This document shows positions 1,436 to 63,761 of a stretch of 64,000 nucleotides of DNA, in pieces. A program made the position numbers and the translations under genes. The notes beneath the pieces were generated by a model, which was not told where the DNA came from, did no database searches, and saw only the letters and a program-made list of their open reading frames with translations. Origin of the DNA: Candidatus Cloacimonadales bacterium (GTDB lineage: Bacteria; Cloacimonadota; Cloacimonadia; Cloacimonadales; WRIO01); NCBI GenBank assembly GCA_041654875.1, contig JBAZCP010000001.1, positions 89,920-153,919 of the forward strand, given 5' to 3'. The first letter of the stretch is position 1. Every line of letters starts with the position of its first letter.

Positions 1436-1588
1436 CTATTTATATCTCCCTTAATTGTATCTAAATATATTTCATTTTTAAAATGATTATATATTTGTCA
1501 AGCAGAACTTGTTGTGTATACTGATTTGCATATCGGTATTGCAAAGAAAACAGAAAAATATATATGATTGAGCAGCTTTGAAACATCT

Positions 1589-1696
1589 TTGATTCCCTTT
1601 AAAAACCCATTGATTCTCCAAGATAGCAAGGGGAAAGTAACGGGATGGTAACGGGATGGTAACGGGATGGTAACGGGATGCTAACGGGATGATAAA
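1589..1696 (+). repeat. Locus 1 of a dispersed 11-bp tandem array family: 42-bp conserved left flank (1589-1630) plus the array (1626-1696)
   Basis: The sequence reads GCAAGGGGAAA, GTAACGGGATG x4, CTAACGGGATG, then decays. The flank TTGATTCCCTTTAAAAACCCATTGATTCTCCAAGATAGCAAG recurs at 38349-38390. It is a GC-rich island in a 661-bp ORF-free AT-rich gap. Confidence 0.95.
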
Positions 1697-2096
1697 GATA
1701 ATAACGAAATCATTTTTACTTCTTGATTGTATGTTTTTAATTAATTATTTATAAAAAGTAAACAAATATTTACGTAAAAAATAGATTAGCAAACAACAAA
1801 TATTTTAAAAATATAGTCGAGAGTATCAACTGTTTTAATAAGATTTTTGTTATAAAGAGGTACCATTAATTGTATTCATTAATAATAATTAAGTTCTATT
1901 TAAATAGCAATTTAAAATCTGTTTGGCGTGACAAAGTACTGTATTATAGAAGATAGACTACTATTTAGTCAAGAATCATTTAATATATTGACAAAATTAA
2001 AAAGAAATATTTAGTTGTAATTAGTAGTAAAAAAAATGAAATATAGAGTGTATTTAAGCAATGAGGGGAAATAAATTAAAATAAAAGGAGCTAAAC

Positions 2097-5886: not shown

Positions 5887-7132
5887 ATATTTAAATAGAC
5901 TTCTCAACGTCTTCAATAGCTTTAAAATAAAGAATTACTCAATCTATTTTTTGGGGCAAGGTACTTCTCTTATAGGCACTTGGATTCAACGTACTGCACT
6001 TAGTTGGCTTATATATCGAGTGACAGACTCTGTTTTATGGCTTGGTTTAATAGGCTTTGTAGGTAAAATCCCATCATTGTTTATAACTCCTTTTGCTGGA
6101 GTAATAGCCGATAAATTTCATAGACATAAGATTTTAAAGATTTCACAGATATGCATGTTGATACAAGCATTTGCTCTTTTTATAATTGTGTTACTTAATG
6201 ATGTAAAAATATGGCAAATTGTATTATTATCATTAATTTTAGGCACGATAGAAACTTTTGAAACACCAGTTCGTCATGCTTTTATATTCGATATAATTAA
6301 AGATAGAGAAAAAATGGCAAATGCGATAGGTTTGAACTCAGCCATGTTTAATATAGCCCGATTAGTTGGGCCCGGTATTGCAGGGTATTTAGTAGCACAT
6401 ATTGGCGAGGCGTATTGTTTTTTGATTAATTCTATATCATTCTTAGCTATGCTCTTAGCACTTTTTAACATGAAAATTGATAGCGTAAAGAAAAACATTA
6501 TTAAATCACCTTTTTTCAGCAATCTTAAAGAAGGCTTTTCATATGTAATTGAGTTTGAGCCTATACGTTATTTGTTGTTTAATGTCAGCATGTTCACCCT
6601 TTTAGGGCAGTCATATACAGTGATATTGCCCTATTTTGCCAAAGAAGTATTTGGTGGTGATTCACGAATTTTAGGTTTGATAATGTCTGCAGTTGGTGGA
6701 GGAGCATTTAGCGGAGCAATATATTTAGCTTCACGCAAAACCACTAAAGGCTTAACTACAATCATATCAAATTTAGGCTTTTTTGCAACAGTTTGCCTGA
6801 TGGTAGTAGCCTATTCAAAAATATATTACCTGAGCTTGGTATTGATTTTTTTAACAAGTTTAGGCATGATGATGCAAATGGCAGGATCAAATACAATCAT
6901 ACAAAGTATTGTTGACGAAGACAAACGTGGTAGAGTGATGAGTATATATTCTATGTCGTTTTTGATATTCTTGCCATTAGGTAGCCTTCTTATCGGTACT
7001 GCATCGAAGTATTTGGGTGTGGAAAACTCAGTATTTTTATCAGCATTATTATGTTGCATAGCAAGTTTTGTATTTAGATTAAAAGTACCACTTATAAGAC
7101 AAAAATTATCTGAAAAAAATGTAGTTGTATGA
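5879..7132 (+). CDS. MFS transporter (EntS/MFS_3-like)
   Basis: 417 aa with about 12 hydrophobic helices. The TTG start overlaps the upstream stop; the exact start is uncertain. Confidence 0.7.
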   Translation: MNKYLNRLLNVFNSFKIKNYSIYFLGQGTSLIGTWIQRTALSWLIYRVTDSVLWLGLIGFVGKIPSLFITPFAGVIADKFHRHKILKISQICMLIQAFALFIIVLLNDVKIWQIVLLSLILGTIETFETPVRHAFIFDIIKDREKMANAIGLNSAMFNIARLVGPGIAGYLVAHIGEAYCFLINSISFLAMLLALFNMKIDSVKKNIIKSPFFSNLKEGFSYVIEFEPIRYLLFNVSMFTLLGQSYTVILPYFAKEVFGGDSRILGLIMSAVGGGAFSGAIYLASRKTTKGLTTIISNLGFFATVCLMVVAYSKIYYLSLVLIFLTSLGMMMQMAGSNTIIQSIVDEDKRGRVMSIYSMSFLIFLPLGSLLIGTASKYLGVENSVFLSALLCCIASFVFRLKVPLIRQKLSEKNVVV

Positions 7133-7208: not shown

Positions 7209-7236
7209 ATTAAATTTGTTTTGATTATGTAGAGAA

Positions 7237-7308
7237 TTTCTACAGGGGTGCTCGCAAGGGCTGAGATTAAACCCTTTGAACCTGATCCGGGTAATGCCGG
7301 CGTAGGGA
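7237..7308 (+). promoter_or_regulatory. TPP (THI-box) riboswitch aptamer
   Basis: Canonical core AGGGGTGC...CTGAGA...ACCCTTTGAACCTGATCCGGGTAATGCCGGCGTAGGGA. P1 pairs TTTCTAC with GTAGGGA. Downstream, CCCTCC (7340-7345) can pair either with GGGAGG (7305-7310) or with the SD GGAGG (7374-7378). Confidence 0.93.
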
Positions 7309-7382
7309 GGATAGATAAATCCCATACCTATGCCTATTACCCTCCAATGCAGGATATTACTGCAAATATGAAAGGAGGAGTA

Positions 7383-8156
7383 ATGGAAGCTATAGTTTCC
7401 AATGCCATAGTGCATTCATACTTCAAAAAGCTACAAGACGCTTTGAGTCTTGATGTCGTAGTTGTTGGAGGTGGTCCATCAGGACTGGTAGCAAGTGAAA
7501 GTCTTGCTAAAAAAGGTTTTAAAGTCGCTCTATTTGATTCAAAACTCTCACCAGGCGGTGGCATGTGGGGCGGAGCAATGATGTTTAATGAGCTTGTTAT
7601 CCAAAAAGAAGCATGGCATATTCTCGAAGAATTTAATATCAAATATACAAAAATCTCCGAAGACCTTGCCACTGCAGACTCTATTCAAGCAACTTCATCA
7701 CTAATATATCACAGTAGTAAGGCTGGAGTTAAAGTGTTTAACTGTATATCAGTTGAAGACGTCGTATTTATAAATAATCGAGTATCAGGAGTTGTAATAA
7801 ACTGGACCCCTATCGGCAGGTTGGATATGCATGTCGACCCGTTGATGGTACGTTCAAAAGTAGTTCTTGATGCCACAGGTCATCCATCTGAAATTGCCAA
7901 AATTACTGCACAGAAAAATAATATCAAACTAAATACCGTAACTGGTATGATAATGGGGGAGATGTCTCTCTCAATTGATGAAGGTGAAAAAAGTACAATC
8001 GAAAATACCAAAGAAGCATATCCTGGACTTTATGTATCTGGTATGGCAGCAAATGGAGTGTTTGGTAGTTTTAGAATGGGACCAATATTTGGAGGTATGC
8101 TACAATCAGGTAAAAGTGCTGCAGAATCTATTGCAAAGGAATTGAGCAATGAATGA
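7383..8156 (+). CDS. thi4: Thiazole synthase, Thi4 family (archaeal-type, His variant)
   Basis: FAD motif VVVGGGPSGL and GGGMWGGAMMF are present. MHVDPL carries His (codon 7830-7832) where yeast THI4 has the sacrificial Cys. Start moved to ATG 7383 (AAAGGAGG RBS); the track ORF start at 7248 lies inside the riboswitch. Confidence 0.88.
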   Translation: MEAIVSNAIVHSYFKKLQDALSLDVVVVGGGPSGLVASESLAKKGFKVALFDSKLSPGGGMWGGAMMFNELVIQKEAWHILEEFNIKYTKISEDLATADSIQATSSLIYHSSKAGVKVFNCISVEDVVFINNRVSGVVINWTPIGRLDMHVDPLMVRSKVVLDATGHPSEIAKITAQKNNIKLNTVTGMIMGEMSLSIDEGEKSTIENTKEAYPGLYVSGMAANGVFGSFRMGPIFGGMLQSGKSAAESIAKELSNE

Positions 8157-15924: not shown

Positions 15925-17799
15925 TTAAAAAATAGTTTTGTGGACAACAGACTTTGATAAAGCTTGAATTTCTTTTCGAAGAAATATCTTCTCTTCATAC
16001 AATTCTGCATTGTCCGGGTTTTTTGTTATTTGTTCATTAATCTCATTTAAATTTTCTTGTAGTTTTCTAAGTTTTATTTGCATAATTAAATCTTGAATAT
16101 CAAAATCGAAATCTTTAGCAAGCATAAAACCTGTTATTATGCCTTTTAATGCCTCACTTTCAAATTGATTCAGAAAATCATCTATCCTTTCATATATACC
16201 TAAATCATGATTATCGCATAGTTTGATATAAATACTTTTCATATCACTATTAATAAAGTAATCAGAATCTAATTCAGATGCAACTTTTTTTATCAAATTA
16301 TTATTTTTTATCAAATATTGTATCAAATATGCTTCTGCTAAATGTTTGTCAATTGTAGATTTCTGGGATTTATTCGCCATCTTAGATTGGGTTGTTTTAG
16401 GTTCAGAACTTATTTGTTGTGGTGTAGCTTTACTATAATCAGCCTCTACTTTATCATAAGTTCTTATTGTGCTTAATTGTTGTTTTAGGCTACTTATTTG
16501 AACGTCAAAGCGCTTACTAATCTCGTTCAAAAACAGGTCTCGGCTAATAAGATCTGTTAATTCATGGGCTACTTCAATCAAAAAGTCAATTGACTCTCTT
16601 GCTTGATCGTGATATTTATTATTGTATATAAAATCAATCAATGTACTTGCTTCATTAACAAGAAGTTGCAAGGACTCAGGTGAGTTTTTTAATAGATAAG
16701 TGTCAGGATCTTCATTTACGGGTAAATTAATAATCTTAACGCTTAATCCTGTTTTCAATGCTAAAGCAGCACCTTTTATAGCAGCGTCTTTACCAGCTCT
16801 GTCACTATCAAATAAAATATAAATGTTATTAGTATATCTTTTTAATAATTGTAACTGTTCTTCTGTCAATGCGGTGCCCAATGTAGCAACTGAGTTGGTG
16901 AAACCGCATTCCCATAGACGTAAAAAATCAAGATATCCCTCTGAAACAATCACGTATTTCATCTTATTAATTTCATATCGTGAATGATATAAACCATAAA
17001 GCACATTACCTTTTTGATAAATACGTGTGGTTGGTGAGTTAATATACTTTCCAAACTTTTCTGTTTCAGCTGTCAGTGCACGCCCTCCAAAGGCAACAAC
17101 TTTGCTATTTATGTCATGAATAGGAAACATAATTCGTTCGCGAAATATATCATAAGTATTATTGTTTTTAGATTTAAACAAACCAGTTTCATCAAGAATA
17201 TCATCATTAATTTGATTTCTCTTGAGGTGTTGCAATAAACCTTTATAGCTATTTAAAGAAAAACCAATATTGAATTTATTGATTGTTTCTTCAGTCAATT
17301 GTCTATTTTTTAGATAAGTCAATGCCATGCTACCGTGCTTTTTTAAGTTTTCAATATAATAGTCGTTTGCGAGACTGTAAATTGTATATAAAAGCTTAGT
17401 TTTTTTATCTAACTTCTTTTTGGGTCTATTTGTAGGAATTTCAAGATTTATTCGTTCTGCAAGCTTTCTTACTGCTTCTATAAAAGATATCTTTTCATAA
17501 TCTCTAACAAAGGTGATTACATTGCCTGCTTTACCACAACCAAAGCATTTGAAAATTTGTTTTGATGGGCTTACAGTAAAGGATCCTGTTTTTTCTTCAT
17601 GAAAAGGACAACGTGCCTTAAAGTTAGAGCCAGCACGAGTTAGTTTGATATATGAGCCTATAACATCAGCAATATTGATACTGTTGATGATTGTGTCTAT
17701 TATTTTCTCGTCAATTTTACTATATGGCACATGATCACTAAATTCATCTTCTTTTAATAAGTCCTGTGTTGAGAAAGAATTATCACTTATTTTAGGCAT
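15925..17799 (-). CDS. dnaG: DNA primase
   Basis: Zinc ribbon CPFHEEKTGSFTVSPSKQIFKCFGCG and TOPRIM motifs (VSEGYLDF, FDSDRAG). Confidence 0.95.
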   Translation of the reverse strand: MPKISDNSFSTQDLLKEDEFSDHVPYSKIDEKIIDTIINSINIADVIGSYIKLTRAGSNFKARCPFHEEKTGSFTVSPSKQIFKCFGCGKAGNVITFVRDYEKISFIEAVRKLAERINLEIPTNRPKKKLDKKTKLLYTIYSLANDYYIENLKKHGSMALTYLKNRQLTEETINKFNIGFSLNSYKGLLQHLKRNQINDDILDETGLFKSKNNNTYDIFRERIMFPIHDINSKVVAFGGRALTAETEKFGKYINSPTTRIYQKGNVLYGLYHSRYEINKMKYVIVSEGYLDFLRLWECGFTNSVATLGTALTEEQLQLLKRYTNNIYILFDSDRAGKDAAIKGAALALKTGLSVKIINLPVNEDPDTYLLKNSPESLQLLVNEASTLIDFIYNNKYHDQARESIDFLIEVAHELTDLISRDLFLNEISKRFDVQISSLKQQLSTIRTYDKVEADYSKATPQQISSEPKTTQSKMANKSQKSTIDKHLAEAYLIQYLIKNNNLIKKVASELDSDYFINSDMKSIYIKLCDNHDLGIYERIDDFLNQFESEALKGIITGFMLAKDFDFDIQDLIMQIKLRKLQENLNEINEQITKNPDNAELYEEKIFLRKEIQALSKSVVHKTIF

Positions 17800-20722: not shown

Positions 20723-21160
20723 TCAAGATAATTTTTGTTTTACAATTGAGCTGATTATTGAGCCATCAGCACGTGAACCTACTTGTTCTTTGACAGCTTT
20801 AATAACAGCTCCCATTTCCTTTATAGTTTTTGCATCAAGATCATTAATTGATTTGTCAATTATTTGACTTAATTCATCTTCTGTCAAAGGAATGGGAAGG
20901 TATGTCCGCAGAATATCAATTTCAGCTTTGCCTTTTTCTACCAGATCATCTCGATTACCTTGATGAAAAAGTACATTTGCCTGTTCTTTACTTTTAACAG
21001 CTTTTTGGATTAGGCTAATGATTTCGGCGTCAGTAAGTTTCTTTTTAAGCTCAATTTCTTTGTTCTGCATTTCACTTTTTAGTATGCGAAGAACTTCAAG
21101 CTTGTGGGTATCTCTTTGACGCATAGCCTCTTTGATATCATTATTTATTCGTGTAAACAC
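20723..21160 (-). CDS. yqeY: GatB/YqeY domain protein
   Basis: 145 aa with YqeY-family sequence features (IKEAMRQRD...LRILKSE...EIISLIQK). Confidence 0.8.
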   Translation of the reverse strand: MFTRINNDIKEAMRQRDTHKLEVLRILKSEMQNKEIELKKKLTDAEIISLIQKAVKSKEQANVLFHQGNRDDLVEKGKAEIDILRTYLPIPLTEDELSQIIDKSINDLDAKTIKEMGAVIKAVKEQVGSRADGSIISSIVKQKLS

Positions 21161-21363
21161 TAACCATACCTCTCCATTTTGCGGGTGAGTTTAATCATCT
21201 TTCTTCTTGCAGCATTATTTTTACGCTTACGTTCGACACTTGGCTTCTCGTATGCTTGTCTTTTCTTAATTTCAGATAAGATAGCTGCTTTTTCACATTT
21301 CTTCTTAAAACGTTTTAAAGTTACTTCGAAAGGTTCTGTTTCTTTAGCATATACTGTTGGCAT
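21160..21363 (-). CDS. rpsU: 30S ribosomal protein S21
   Basis: [48 protein letters not shown]. Start set to the second ATG (21363); the upstream in-frame codons spell the SD GGAGGTG. Confidence 0.9.
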
Positions 21364-21625
21364 GTTTTCACCTCCTTTCATTTAACAAATTAATATAAGA
21401 TTAATACAATAATCTTTATATTATACATAAAAATAAAGTTCGCATTATTTGTCAAGATAAATTTGTCAATAAAAGAGAACTATTTGATTAGTGTTTGTAT
21501 CAGCTATTAATAGTAGAATTATTACAGTAATTGTAAAAATCATTGACTCAAACTTTTGACTTTGTAATCAATTTGAACTGACAGATATTAGCACATCTTT
21601 TTCATTCAGATGAACCCCCCTTATG

Positions 21626-21707
21626 TTCACGAAATATTCACGAATGATTAACGGGAAAGTAACGGGAAAGTAACGGGATGGTAACGGGATGGTAACGGGA
21701 TGGTACA
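21626..21707 (+). repeat. Locus 2 of the 11-bp tandem array family
   Basis: TTAACGGGAAA, GTAACGGGAAA, GTAACGGGATG x3 (21648-21702), then GTACAGG. Two decayed units lie upstream in the same 11-bp register (TTCACGAAATA, TTCACGAATGA at 21626 and 21637). Confidence 0.95.
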
Positions 21708-37868: not shown

Positions 37869-38348
37869 AACATACTCACTTTCTATATTAGATCTTTTAT
37901 ATCACTTTCTACAATTAATGAGATTTGTCAAGAAAATTCACTAATAATTGTGATAAAAAAATAATAAAACCAATAATTTGATTATTTGAAAATTCTTAAA
38001 AGACTAATAACAAGACAGATAAATATGCTTATATTGTAAATATTATTATAAATACTGCATAGATTAGCAATTTGTAACTATCTTCTTTATAGTTCGATAA
38101 TGGAGATATATTCCTTTTTATATTTATAAATAATAATTAGAAGAGCTAAAATATCAGTTTATTGAAACTATATCGATGCAATTGCTTTTTGATATTAGTT
38201 TTTTTTTCGGTTATACACACATAAAAATTAGTATTCTACTGATAACTATTATGGATATTTACTTGTTAAACTGAAAATATTATAGGTTCTTGAACAATCT
38301 CCTTTAATTATCCTAAATAAGGCTATCTTAAACTCTAAACACTCCTTA

Positions 38349-38423
38349 TTGATTCCCCTTTAAATCCCCTTCATTCTCCAAGATAGCAACGGGATGGTAA
38401 CGGGATGGTAACGGGATGGTATT
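38349..38423 (+). repeat. Locus 3 of the 11-bp tandem array family: conserved flank (38349-38390) plus the array (38386-38423)
   Basis: GCAACGGGATG and GTAACGGGATG x2, then GTATT. The flank TTGATTCCCCTTTAAATCCCCTTCATTCTCCAAGATAGCAAC matches the locus-1 flank at 37 of 43 aligned columns. Confidence 0.95.
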
Positions 38424-38569
38424 AAGAAAACAATTATTTTGGACTAATCATCTCATATAAACAACTATATTACTTAATATTAATAAACCGATACTTGAAG
38501 ATATATATTGACTTATATTGTATGCTTAGAAATTTGTCAATTTAAAGAGATAAAATAAATGGAGGATAA

Positions 38570-58437: not shown

Positions 58438-58466
58438 ATTATAGTGGGAAAGTAACGGGATGGTAA
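58438..58466 (-). promoter_or_regulatory. Candidate minus-strand promoter built from an array unit
   Basis: On the minus strand: TTACCA (58466-58461, inside a repeat unit), exactly 17 bp, then a perfect TATAAT (58443-58438) 2 nt beyond the left edge of the G-rich array. Confidence 0.35.
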
Positions 58467-58489
58467 CGGGATGGTAACGGGATGGTATC
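58441..58489 (+). repeat. Locus 4 of the 11-bp tandem array family
   Basis: ATAGTGGGAAA and GTAACGGGATG x3 (58452-58484), then GTATCG. It lies in a 942-bp ORF-free gap. Confidence 0.95.
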
Positions 58490-58967
58490 GATTTTCTTTA
58501 ATAGTGTTTTGCTATTTCTCTTCCATTAATAATGTTAATTTTATAAGTGATAAACAATTTGTGATAATATTTTGTGTTGATGTTTTTTAATAATGTTAAT
58601 ATGATTTTACAGAGTTATGTATGGTTTCATAGAAATATTAAAATTGCTCATCAAAACAGAGTTATTTTTTAGATGGTTTTAAATAAATTGGAAATCAAAT
58701 ATTTTAACGATAAAAGTTTAAATAGATAAATTTAATTTGTATTTGGAATTATAAGCTATTTTAAGGCTCTTTTTGATCCTTAGAAGAGCTTTGATACTAT
58801 GATTTTTTTTTAAAGCTGTATTTACACTCTAATTTAACTTCATGTTCTGGAATCTGTTTATCACTTTTAAACATCAAAGAAAGGGGTTGCTTCACATTAA
58901 ATACCTCTTGAATATTTCGCTGAATCAAATTGAAACATAAGCAACATTATGTAAACCTGCAGACAGT

Positions 58968-60656: not shown

Positions 60657-63600
60657 ATGGTAAAGAGTATGAAACGAAAAACAATAAAAAAAGTAAATCT
60701 TCAAAGTAAAAGCGAAGGACAAGAGCACGTTGTTAAAGATTTTCAATTGGAAGAAAATGAATTTATCGACAATAGATATCGTGTTATCGAGCCTCTTCAC
60801 TCAAGTAGATTCAGCCAAATATATCTCGCTGAAGATATAAATTTAGGCAAGTTTGTTGTTATTAAAATATTTGGCAAATATTTCGAATTAAAAGATAATT
60901 ACGAGTTTCTTAAGTTATTTACCAATCAATTTAAAACATTAAAACATAAAAATATCGTAAATATTGAAGATTTCATCGATTCCAATTATGTTTTTCAAGT
61001 AATGGAATACATAGAAGGCCACACTTTAGAACACCTTAATGATAAAAGATTATTAAAGAAATCACAAATTCTGCCTTATTTACTTCAAATTGCAGAGGCA
61101 ATGCAAATGGCACACGCCAAAAGTATCTATCATTGTGACTTAAAGCCCTCTAATATCATGGTTAATAATCAAGATATCATAAAAATTATAGATTTCTCTC
61201 ATCCACAACTACATAAAACTCTTTATGGTGAAGATATCTTAACAAACGAATACATAGCTCCTGAATTTTTAAATAATGTTTTGGAAAATACTGATAACGT
61301 GCAGCGTGATATTTATGCTTATGGTATCACTATGTTCGAATTAGTTTATGGTTACTTACCCTTTAAGACAAACTCAAATCAACAAATAGAGTATATTCTC
61401 CCCAATAAATTACGACGTAGTAAAAAGCCTATAGATAAAATCATAAGAAAATGTATTTATTATTATCCCGAAGACAGATATCAATCATTTGATGAAGTAA
61501 TTACTGACCTAAAATCAATAAAAATAACAAAAGAGCCACTTTTGCATACATTTAAAAAAACATTTGCTAATACAATTAAACTCAAGAATATTAATCCTGA
61601 CTATAGAAGTGATTTGAAATATTTATGGCTCGCTTTGATGTCGCTTTTGTTGATATTACCTTTTTATTTAGTTGTTCAAAGAAATTATGAGCAGCCTTAT
61701 AATGAAATTGAAATTGACTCTCCCCCATATCATTTATATGTAAACATGCTTAATCAAGGTCAATTGCCACTTAAAACAGCATTAAAAAAAGGCGACCATT
61801 TAGAGTTTGTTGATAATCAAGGTAATAGTATGTTTGAAATGTTTTATAATAATGAAAAGAAACTTGATATAGAGTTTCAAAGAAAAAAGATATTTGTTAA
61901 CAAGAAACTATACGGTCAAACTGTAAAACATGTGCATGATTTACCTTTAGGAAAGAATTTAAAATATCTTAAAACAGATATTTTCTTATCAAAAAAAGAT
62001 TTTAAAAAACAAAATAATTACGGATTTATTATCAACTTAGATGAAGTAATAGACGAACAGATTTTTAGTGAACTACCAAATAAAACAGCATTTATTAATA
62101 TGAAAAATAATAAAAAAATCAAAACAATTAATAGCTTAAAGAGATTGAAATATCTGGAAGGGTTAAACATTGAAAACAGTGAAATTAACACTGAGGATCT
62201 GAAAGAAATTAAGCCACTTAAGCATCTTAACTTAAAGAAAACAAAAATTAAACGCCTCTCCCCTATCTTAAAGCAAACTCAACTTCAAAATCTCGACATC
62301 AGCGATACAGATATTGAAATACTAAATAGTATTGAAAACCTTAATAGCCTTGAGAACCTGTTTCTGTCAACAAACATGATAAGTGATTTTAGACCGCTTT
62401 ATAAATTATCAAATTTGCGATCAATTAGTACTAATACTCAGGGCTTTCAAGAGAGTACTATCGAAGAGTTTAGACAGTTTTTAGATAGATCTAATGCACA
62501 GAAAAGTATCAGGCATAAATATATTTCAAAGAAAAACAATAATTATTTTTATTTCATATTATTTTTAGTTACACTGATAATGGCTGCAGTTATAGTGTTC
62601 TTGTTTAGGCTTTTATTTAAAAAAGTTAAAAAGCAACTGAATAATATAGTAGCAGATATAGATGAAGCTGAACAGCAAGAAGAACCACAAAAAAAGATCA
62701 AAGCATACGGCAGCAGAGAATTAAGTCTTATTAGAACATCAATAGATGATAATAGGCTCTACACGCCTCCAAAAGATAATGCACTATACTATTTAGGTAC
62801 ATTGTTGAATGACAATGATCAAGACAAAGAGCTATTGAGTCTTAAAGATGAATTAATAGGTATATTGGAAGATAAATGCAAACTGCATGTCAAGCGAGAT
62901 GAATATGAAGCTATTTATCTGATTAGTGATGCTTGTAATCAATATTTTCCAAATGAAGTTTATTCAAGCAAACTAAAAATGGCTAAGAAGCACCTTTTGA
63001 AAAACTATTTAATTAAAATGAAAAAAATAAAAAAAGGAAGCTTTTTAATGGGTGATTTTACAGTACAATTTTCTGATAAATCTCTAACACCTCACATAGT
63101 ACATGTAGAATCTTTTAAAATTAGTGACACAGTAATTACCAATAAACAATTTTGTGAGTTTTTAAATGCTGAAGGTAATCAAAGAGAATATGGAACCTCA
63201 TGGTACAAAGAAGATAGCCAATACGCTCGTATTGAGAAATTACATGGACAATATATATGCAAAGAGCCTTACAATGATTTTCCTGTATATGATATAAACT
63301 GGTTCGGAGCAATGAGGTTTTGTGAGTGGAAAGGTGGAAGATTACCTACAGAAGCAGAATGGGAATATGCAGCAAGATCAGCAGGAAAAAACAATCTATA
63401 TGCTATTAACGGCAAATTAAACAAAAACAATGCAAACTATCTTGTTGATATAAATGACACATTGTGGCATTCTGTTTTTCCTGTTAAAAGTTTTAAACCA
63501 AATAGTCTCAAATTATATGAAATGAGCGGCAATATTCTCGAGTGGTGTTATGATTGGTATGATAAATATTATTATGATATTTCGCCAGAGAACAATCCCA

Positions 63601-63761
63601 AAGGTCCTAAAAACGGGGAAATGAAGGTTGTAAGAGGGGGTGCTTGGTGCTTTGGAACAGAGCAAATGAAAACTATTTATCGTGGTAGTGCAAAGCCTCT
63701 TACACGAAATAATTTTATTGGTTTTCGCCTGGTAATGCCTATTACAAAGGATAAAATATGA
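60657..63761 (+). CDS. Ser/Thr protein kinase - TM - LRR - TM - FGE-sulfatase (SUMF1-like) domain fusion
   Basis: Kinase motifs VVIKIF, HCDLKPSNIMV, DFS and YIAPEF. Two hydrophobic segments (YLWLALMSLLLILPFYLVV; FYFILFLVTLIMAAVIVFLF). LRR-like LxxLxLxxN repeats lie between them. The C-terminus is FGE-like (GSFLMGD, RLPTEAEWEYAAR, VVRGGAW, GFRLV). Confidence 0.8.
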   Translation: MVKSMKRKTIKKVNLQSKSEGQEHVVKDFQLEENEFIDNRYRVIEPLHSSRFSQIYLAEDINLGKFVVIKIFGKYFELKDNYEFLKLFTNQFKTLKHKNIVNIEDFIDSNYVFQVMEYIEGHTLEHLNDKRLLKKSQILPYLLQIAEAMQMAHAKSIYHCDLKPSNIMVNNQDIIKIIDFSHPQLHKTLYGEDILTNEYIAPEFLNNVLENTDNVQRDIYAYGITMFELVYGYLPFKTNSNQQIEYILPNKLRRSKKPIDKIIRKCIYYYPEDRYQSFDEVITDLKSIKITKEPLLHTFKKTFANTIKLKNINPDYRSDLKYLWLALMSLLLILPFYLVVQRNYEQPYNEIEIDSPPYHLYVNMLNQGQLPLKTALKKGDHLEFVDNQGNSMFEMFYNNEKKLDIEFQRKKIFVNKKLYGQTVKHVHDLPLGKNLKYLKTDIFLSKKDFKKQNNYGFIINLDEVIDEQIFSELPNKTAFINMKNNKKIKTINSLKRLKYLEGLNIENSEINTEDLKEIKPLKHLNLKKTKIKRLSPILKQTQLQNLDISDTDIEILNSIENLNSLENLFLSTNMISDFRPLYKLSNLRSISTNTQGFQESTIEEFRQFLDRSNAQKSIRHKYISKKNNNYFYFILFLVTLIMAAVIVFLFRLLFKKVKKQLNNIVADIDEAEQQEEPQKKIKAYGSRELSLIRTSIDDNRLYTPPKDNALYYLGTLLNDNDQDKELLSLKDELIGILEDKCKLHVKRDEYEAIYLISDACNQYFPNEVYSSKLKMAKKHLLKNYLIKMKKIKKGSFLMGDFTVQFSDKSLTPHIVHVESFKISDTVITNKQFCEFLNAEGNQREYGTSWYKEDSQYARIEKLHGQYICKEPYNDFPVYDINWFGAMRFCEWKGGRLPTEAEWEYAARSAGKNNLYAINGKLNKNNANYLVDINDTLWHSVFPVKSFKPNSLKLYEMSGNILEWCYDWYDKYYYDISPENNPKGPKNGEMKVVRGGAWCFGTEQMKTIYRGSAKPLTRNNFIGFRLVMPITKDKI

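Follow-up and report, generated by a model that had tools for sequence, protein, structure and literature searches.

What is an 11-bp sequence that stands repeated head to tail in an intergenic gap, and again at three further places in the same contig? The question is raised by the array of GTAACGGGATG at locus 1 of the window, the whole stretch of 64,000 nucleotides analysed here, and the preliminary description had answered it by favouring a phased protein-binding array of the PhoB/OmpR or iteron type. We suggest a different answer, namely that the array forms an arm of an interspersed repeat element, short, non-coding and intergenic, of one Cloacimonadota lineage, its identity as a dispersed repeat being close to certain. 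REP, BIME and MITE repeats are well studied in proteobacteria and essentially undescribed in Cloacimonadota, an uncultured phylum that is important in anaerobic digesters, and our literature search found no description of repeats of this kind in the phylum.

Four arrays of one unit

Read directly, the locus 1 array consists of GCAAGGGGAAA (1626-1636), four copies of GTAACGGGATG (1637-1680) and CTAACGGGATG (1681-1691), after which it decays into ATAAAGATAAT; TRF places it at 1637-1695, with a period of 11, 5.4 copies, 95% matches and a score of 104. Arrays of the same unit lie at 1626-1691, 21648-21702, 38386-38418 and 58441-58484, all on the plus strand, and TRF finds those of loci 2-4 at 21649-21705, 38388-38421 and 58452-58487. 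With at most one mismatch, GTAACGGGATG has 14 matches in the window where 0.13 are expected, a number reached in none of 100 shuffles. The core AACGGGA occurs 16 times, always (16/16) inside the four arrays, and within the window no isolated or paired site was found outside them. The four loci and the flank common to loci 1 and 3 that had been described before are borne out, as is the dispersal of the unit on one strand (14 of 14 matches on the plus strand). It also holds that the array is non-coding and that it is not a CRISPR, the units being contiguous, with no unique spacers between them.

The gap around locus 1 is, as previously reported, divergent and free of ORFs over 661 bp (1436-2096). 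It is bordered on the left by a PfkB/Phos_pyr_kin gene on the minus strand and on the right by a class-III aminotransferase gene on the plus strand, with a BKACE (kce) gene after the latter. The left flank of the array (about 1588-1628), in which direct reading shows the internal repeat TTGATTC(C/T)CC, appears again at locus 3 (38348-38388), and TTCTCCAAGATAGC is identical between the two. Loci 2 and 4 have the array without this flank. Locus 2 also has no canonical centre, and upstream of it there is only a C-run, gaacccccctta, at about 21613-21624; the rpsU gene (ribosomal protein S21, 67-73 aa; 21160-21381, minus strand) sits between YqeY and this array, and since it intervenes, locus 2 is divergent from rpsU and not from YqeY. 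Locus 4 is placed between two minus-strand genes and is antisense to both. The parts of each copy are collected in Table 1.

Table 1. Parts of the element at the four loci of the window, and insertion sequences beside the related elements of MAG OY762964.1
Feature	Position	Strand	Basis
Locus 1, C-rich diverged arm: cTTTGATTCCCTTT AAAAACCCATT GAT, 2-3 units of ~11 bp	1587..1613	+	reading; aligns to locus 3
Locus 1, conserved centre: TTCTCCAAGATAGCA	1614..1628	+	exact match between 1614-1627 and 38374-38387
Locus 1, G-rich arm: degenerate GCAAGGGGAAA, 4 x GTAACGGGATG, CTAACGGGATG, decayed terminal ATAAAGATAAT	1626..1702	+	reading, TRF
Locus 2: TTAACGGGAAA, GTAACGGGAAA, 3 x GTAACGGGATG, terminal GTACAGGTAAA	21648..21713	+	
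Locus 3, C-rich diverged arm: cactccttaTTGATTCCCCTT TAAATCCCCTT CAT	38340..38373	+	
Locus 3, conserved centre: TTCTCCAAGATAGCA	38374..38388	+	
Locus 3, G-rich arm: GCAACGGGATG, 2 x GTAACGGGATG, terminal GTATTAAGAAA	38386..38429	+	
Locus 4: ATAGTGGGAAA, 3 x GTAACGGGATG, terminal GTATCGATTTT; no centre, no C-rich arm	58441..58495	+	
IS3-family IS beside OY762964.1 elements	L042 4110-5400; also L013, L014, L018, L022, L029, L041, L058, L065, L078		

The composite element around the array

A metagenome scan that required two perfect GTAACGGGATG units returned 42 loci. Eight of these were set aside as coming from other organisms, and removal of duplicates left about 28 distinct Cloacimonadota-type copies, whose anatomy is that of window loci 1 and 3. 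The array had been described as a feature in itself; it is real, but it belongs to a larger element of about 80-130 bp, roughly inverted around a conserved centre, of which it makes up one arm. The C-rich arm repeats every ~11 bp, in two to five diverged units with the consensus cTTTnAYTCCCC, an arm type that is present in 16 type-A copies. The centre, TTCTCCAAGATAGCA, is bracketed by short inverted runs of the GGAG/CTCC type and is present in 25 distinct copies, 16 of which have it in one orientation relative to the perfect arm and nine in the other, so that, when the element is defined by its centre, the perfect arm may lie on either side of it. The G-rich arm is made up of a proximal degenerate unit, GCAAGGGGAWD, two to five perfect GTAACGGGATG units and a distal decayed unit, for which 32 aligned copies give the consensus G[GC]TAnnGRAAAT. 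Beyond this 12-nt unit no conservation was found in the 32 aligned right flanks. The centre or the C-rich arm is missing from some copies, among them window loci 2 and 4 as well as L116, L119 and L129. No terminal inverted repeats could be delimited at the outer ends of the aligned copies; GGGA-type units stand inverted on both arms.

All loci have the same perfect unit, while the diverged arm varies greatly from copy to copy. A recent burst from a single master copy would not be expected to leave a uniform unit next to a drifting arm, and the invariance could reflect selection on the unit. Within an array the perfect units lie in the middle and the decayed ones at the edges, a pattern from which we infer slippage or unequal exchange.

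Genomic context and orientation

Every copy, that is, the four in the window and about 28 in the metagenomes, is intergenic, and none lies inside an ORF. The gaps that they occupy are co-directional in 17 cases, divergent in 13 and convergent in two, matching the length-weighted background of gaps in the same contigs (57, 36 and 7%, respectively); a preference for divergent gaps was rejected on this ground. The flanking genes are unrelated to one another (exonuclease, DeoC, pseudouridine glycosidase, Fpg, GntR, FliJ, UPF0047 and outer-membrane proteins, among the metagenome and window copies), and a regulon was rejected because the downstream genes are so diverse. No recurrent protein family, transposase or RAYT was found beside copies of the window family. 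The neighbours of the window loci are metabolic or housekeeping genes, with no rep or par gene adjoining, and the distance from array to start codon ranges from 33 to about 700 bp. The motif thus occurs only inside copies of the element and next to unrelated genes, which speaks against the gene-specific PhoB/OmpR- or iteron-type array first proposed.

The orientation of the copies is less even. In 34 of 43 cases the G-rich perfect arm is directed at a downstream gene of the same orientation; for co-directional gaps alone the count is 14 towards the downstream gene and three away from it. The arrays of one contig are mostly on a common strand. These biases of orientation and shared strand are not predicted by a purely neutral repeat. 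Control by the replication strand found no support in the upstream genes, which are unbiased (16 on the plus and 18 on the minus strand), or in OY762964.1, the MAG described below, where array orientation shows no replichore pattern; in the window family it may still play a part. At L103, L104 and L141 a sigma-70-like promoter of the downstream gene, identified by reading, lies 3' of the array.

Conspecific strains and relatives

Contigs of many samples whose flanking proteins are identical to those of the window bear the same arrays, NCBI GCA_028686915.1 among them. The species is present in digester and landfill samples, e.g., those of Ga0172382 and Ga0265293. The locus 2 array is identical across 8 conspecific contigs and the locus 4 array across 9; at locus 3, strain L222 has one unit fewer, the single-unit length difference among strains, and three contigs carry a C/G change that gives GCAAGGGGATG as the first unit. 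The earlier suggestion of a slippage-prone VNTR draws some slight support from that one difference, but copy number is otherwise near-constant among conspecific contigs. All of these contigs bear the element, and since none of them offers an empty site, its ends and any target-site duplication are undefined. Several contigs of this species (L149, L150, L226, L227, L228 and L248) end in or at 11-bp arrays; short-read assemblies break there, and the repeat therefore fragments MAGs.

In relatives with an aminotransferase about 80% identical to that of the window, the operon is kept and so is the box TTGACAAAA, about 105 nt before the ATG, while the gap upstream of the operon is only 171 bp long, with different genes beside it, and no 11-bp array was found within about 60 kb. 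In the window this promoter box (at ~1990) lies about 300 bp downstream of the locus 1 array, which is therefore outside the conserved control region of the operon, and a gene-specific operator at locus 1 is not borne out. Absence of the array from the orthologous gaps of close relatives was part of what the preliminary description had fixed in advance as refuting its reading, and there it is absent though the operon is conserved. The element is likewise absent upstream of YitT in relatives whose YitT is 85% (L249) and 74% (L252) identical. The relatives' gaps are too diverged to align with those of the window. As the orthologous genes work without the element in these relatives, it is not needed for the genes next to it.

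Elsewhere in L249 (GCA_029553545.1), two unexpanded copies are found, at 16037-16150 (plus strand) and about 6260-6380 (minus strand). They share with the window family the centre plus a first unit, TTCTCCAAGATAGCAAGG(G/A)GAAT, and copy 1 agrees with window locus 1 over TTCTCCAAGATAGCAAGGGGAA. Besides a CCTTTTGATTCC-type arm they have a G arm of two units only (GCAAGGGGAAT and GTAAGGGGGGA) and an extra conserved right part that ends in AAATAGTCWTATACA, and there is an inner inverted repeat of 13 bp with 11/13 matches. The family of elements thus predates the perfect array, which is a lineage-specific amplification of unit 2.

Two further observations concern the same relatives. The gaps of loci 1 and 3 (1436-2096 and 37869-38569) are synteny breakpoints relative to L154-L158, L249 and L252, at which the downstream operons are kept and the upstream neighbours differ (a pdxK-like gene in place of an S49 peptidase or histidine kinase gene, and an M42 peptidase gene in place of TatD or a MarR-OsmC-thioredoxin operon). 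Downstream of a thioredoxin-like gene in L252, the 74% relative, a pyrimidine tract with an 11-bp period, TTCTTTCCTTA x3, occupies 1362-1420; its analogous place made it a candidate orthologue of locus 4, which was set aside because homology could not be demonstrated, only the terminator by the thioredoxin gene being alignable.

A sister family and other 11-bp arrays

A scan of the genome collection for three successive AACGGGA-N4 units matched many unrelated genomes once, at least 16 loci of the Cloacimonadales MAG OY762964.1, a complete chromosome, and three other Cloacimonadota MAGs. The unit in OY762964.1 is AACGGGAGA[CG]C (AACGGGAGAsC), the opposite arm consists of inverted copies of it, and the loop between them is GCGAGC, which also occurs flipped as GCTCGC. 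These elements are palindromes of ~250 bp that fold with about -100 kcal/mol on either strand, and the equal energy of the two strands marks them as palindromes at the level of DNA. The centre profile of the window family matches them weakly (E 1e-3 to 1e-4). Three Cloacimonadota families have AACGGGA in common, and in all of them the 11-bp period is strict.

Of the 16 OY762964.1 copies, 10 have an IS3-family IS, or what is left of one, directly beside the perfect arm (Table 1), always in the same orientation and with several different junctions. Its two ORFs are an HTH OrfA (155 aa) and an rve OrfB (218 aa), but several loci retain only the first ~60 codons of the IS. The proteins of this IS are absent from the loci of the window family.

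Arrays of the window's 11-mer also turned up in another context, in five Ga0214179 contigs (L102, L124, L125, L131 and L139), where the unit is GTAACGGGA(T/C)G; on their flanks stand 10-bp repeats of CAGTAACGGT and GTAACGGTAACGGGAC, the TTCTCCAAGATAGC centre is lacking, and they probably represent a different element or organism. Dispersed or long ACGGGA arrays with an 11-bp period were noted in other FCB-group MAGs as well (L027/L047/L089, L060/L074/L090, L040/L097, L083 and L007), the hosts being a Bacteroidaceae MAG, two Bacteroidales MAGs, Ca. Celaenobacter antarcticus (15.5 copies) and Kapaibacterium; some of these arrays have conserved flanks of their own.

Folding, RNA and promoter signals

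The window loci fold like shuffled sequences on either strand (z from -0.3 to +0.8). Complementarity between mirror positions of the two arms is the same within one copy as between different copies, and against arm-wise shuffles the mean z is -0.56 (n=25 copies). With no specific pairing between them, the arms share an inverted motif, AAnGGGA (TCCCnTT on the other strand), and not a base-paired structure, which makes a single-strand hairpin substrate of the REPIN type unlikely in the window family and recognition of double-stranded DNA the simplest reading.

Rfam, CsrB/RsmZ-type sponges included, gave no match at or near threshold for the array or the element, no terminator was predicted on it, and no conserved promoter is attached to it; the sRNA that had been offered as an alternative finds no support in these searches. 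A hairpin or riboswitch-like leader at the RNA level was suspected from T standing opposite G in the left arm of the OY762964.1 family, and was rejected because that family folds with equal energy on both strands and the window family has no specific pairing. An outward promoter at the array end, where TGGTATAAG resembles an extended -10, was rejected as well, since the resemblance is confined to the decayed unit and the 32 flanks have no T at position 6 of the -10. Mimicry of a sigma-54 or ECF promoter by the unit fails, on reading of the sequence, by its spacing. The G-quadruplex that had also been proposed is not supported either: at least four G3 tracts with loops of at most 7 nt define such a structure, and here the loops are 8 nt long and locus 3 has three tracts.

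Comparison with known systems

The closest known kinds of repeat are REP/BIME/REPIN elements and foldback-type MITEs, the window family itself being undescribed. Neither plasmids and phages nor IMG/VR hold a match to the window element, and together with Rfam and the literature they confirm that it belongs to no described repeat family. A phage or plasmid origin was rejected on this ground; the 60 IMG/VR matches to the 15-mer centre come without arrays and are chance matches.

REPINs are extragenic, have a high copy number, consist of inverted arms around a spacer and persist by vertical descent (PMC3116915, PMC3337134). The window family resembles REP, BIME and REPIN elements in its small size, its lack of coding capacity, its strictly extragenic location and its many copies per genome (PMC3116915, PMC3333891), in its inverted arms around a spacer, and in being lineage-specific yet stably inherited. 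REP sequences are also known IS targets, and the sister family is likewise an IS insertion hot spot (PMC1525189). Unlike REPs and REPINs, however, the window family has arms built of 11-bp direct sub-repeats, which is not a REP feature; its arms are not specifically complementary and form no stable hairpin, hairpins being found only in the sister family of OY762964.1; no RAYT was found beside the copies; and the conserved centre occurs in both orientations. The host, moreover, belongs to an uncultured phylum of the FCB group, whereas the REP/BIME elements of the comparison are those of proteobacteria.

Eukaryotic Foldback elements have long inverted arms of tandem sub-repeats, and Correia and ERIC elements are bacterial MITEs. 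Like these, the window elements are of similar size, dispersed between genes, and provided with inverted arms of variable length that carry repeated putative transposase sites, and the ~250-bp palindrome of the sister family is itself a foldback. What sets them apart from MITEs is that no terminal inverted repeats or target-site duplication could be defined and that no autonomous partner is known.

PhoB/OmpR operators (the pho boxes, and the PhoP boxes of B. subtilis) and the 11-bp iterons of R1 parC are head-to-tail direct repeats, and the arrays share with them the 11-bp period, a conserved core of ~7 bp with ~4 variable bp, and the number of three to six copies. The period of 11 and the invariant AACGGGA core are those of an OmpR/PhoB-type repeat. 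In contrast to such operators, the window arrays are not at -35, serve no coherent regulon and are not kept at orthologous promoters, and in contrast to operators and iterons alike they always form part of a repeat element that has a second, inverted arm. They differ from plasmid iterons and par centromeres also in having no rep or par neighbours, in occurring at four loci within 64 kb and in matching no plasmid.

Origin and possible roles of the element

We consider it probable, though well short of certain, that the element is a selfish or neutral interspersed repeat of the REP/MITE sort, one arm of which grew by slippage. As selfish or neutral DNA, the family would have become established in many intergenic places, in the way of REP/BIME/REPIN elements or MITEs. 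The mobility that we infer would probably be provided in trans, by a putative protein that recognises the GGGA units of both arms once per helical turn. In the species of the window, unit 2 of one arm would then have been amplified by replication slippage or unequal exchange, leaving the middle units of the array perfect and those at its edges decayed. Tandem amplification of units is also how BIME-2 elements grow. Any effect of such a repeat on its neighbours, as a protein roadblock, a DNA bend or a recombination hot spot, would be secondary at most and is hypothetical, and phased binding of a putative protein, e.g., a transposase or a nucleoid protein, is possible.

That last possibility can be carried further, to arrays that are functional in themselves: a platform on which a host protein polymerises head to tail and thereby regulates, insulates or organises DNA, the candidates being an OmpR/PhoB-type response regulator, a ParR/centromere-like protein or a nucleoid-associated protein, and the element their domesticated carrier. 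The strict 11-bp period on both arms and in three Cloacimonadota families would fit such a platform, as would a perfect unit that stays identical at all loci though the other arm drifts, the placing of the arrays in promoter-containing gaps with the G-rich arm mostly turned to the downstream gene, a copy number stable among strains, and a lack of hairpins that leaves double-stranded DNA as the likeliest substrate. We nevertheless hold it to be doubtful, because the window has no isolated or paired sites elsewhere, the neighbours are unrelated and stand at very different distances from the arrays, locus 1 is remote from the conserved promoter box, relatives lack the element in the corresponding gaps, its use of gaps is that of the background, and no candidate binding protein was found. 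A bolder form, in which a conserved protein of Cloacimonadota, perhaps of the whole FCB group, polymerises on AAnGGGA units exactly 11 bp apart and the elements are its landing pads, is unlikely. If it were true, the protein might be, e.g., a transposase that has been domesticated, or one with a nucleoid or insulator role, slippage would tune the length of the arrays and the downstream promoter would set their orientation, and the arrays would form a new genome-wide phased-array system and not junk DNA; units that are protein landing sites would make the family a pointer to an unrecognised DNA-binding system of the phylum.

The remaining readings place the activity in a single strand or in the tract itself. 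A REPIN-type element moved as single-stranded DNA by a single-copy RAYT (a Y1 HUH transposase) would share with the window family the extragenic location, high copy number, inverted arms and lack of polymorphism within the species that are known of REPINs (PMC3116915, PMC3337134), and the long hairpins of the sister family attract IS as REPs do (PMC1525189); this is still very unlikely, as RAYTs act on hairpins (PMC3333891) and the window family has no specific one, no RAYT gene is near any copy, and arms of tandem 11-bp units are not REP-like. Action as RNA, be it an sRNA or leader whose repeated GGGAUG titrates an RNA-binding protein or a C-rich arm that masks the G-rich one, would fit the tendency of the G-rich arm to lie on the sense strand of downstream genes. 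The unit moreover resembles the CsrA site, whose SELEX consensus, RUACARGGAUGU, is comparable to GUAACGGGAUGG, and CsrA/FliW may exist in the lineage, given its flagellar genes (FliJ, flagellin). We regard such a role as highly improbable in view of the lack of an attached conserved promoter or terminator, of covariation or specific pairing of the arms and of an Rfam match, and in view of sigma-70-like promoters that lie downstream of the array at locus 1, L103, L104 and L141 and of locus 4 being antisense to both neighbours. A G-quadruplex or i-motif element, or a hypermutable VNTR that switches neighbouring genes, is suggested by the regularly spaced GGG tracts and the one unit by which a strain differs, and is extremely improbable: the G3 tracts are too far apart and at locus 3 too few, nearly all conspecific contigs from many samples have the same copy number, and the arrays are far from start codons and from -35/-10 boxes, so changes in their length would not alter promoter spacing.

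Taken as a REP/MITE-like repeat, the element is unusual in its build, with inverted arms of 11-bp units in helical phase, a centre that can be flipped and amplification of one arm only. The unexpanded, expanded and ~250-bp foldback copies in three species provide a natural series for the origin and decay of such repeats. In practical terms, the arrays fragment short-read MAG assemblies and sit at synteny breakpoints, and they are possible strain markers.

Other features of the window

Apart from the element, the window has a TPP riboswitch (RF00059) at 7234-7325 on the plus strand, with 74.8 bits against a gathering score of 54.3, upstream of plus-strand genes that start near 7248-8156. Further along, at 60657-63761 on the plus strand, it encodes a protein of 1034 aa in which a Ser/Thr kinase domain occurs together with leucine-rich repeats and an FGE-sulfatase domain.
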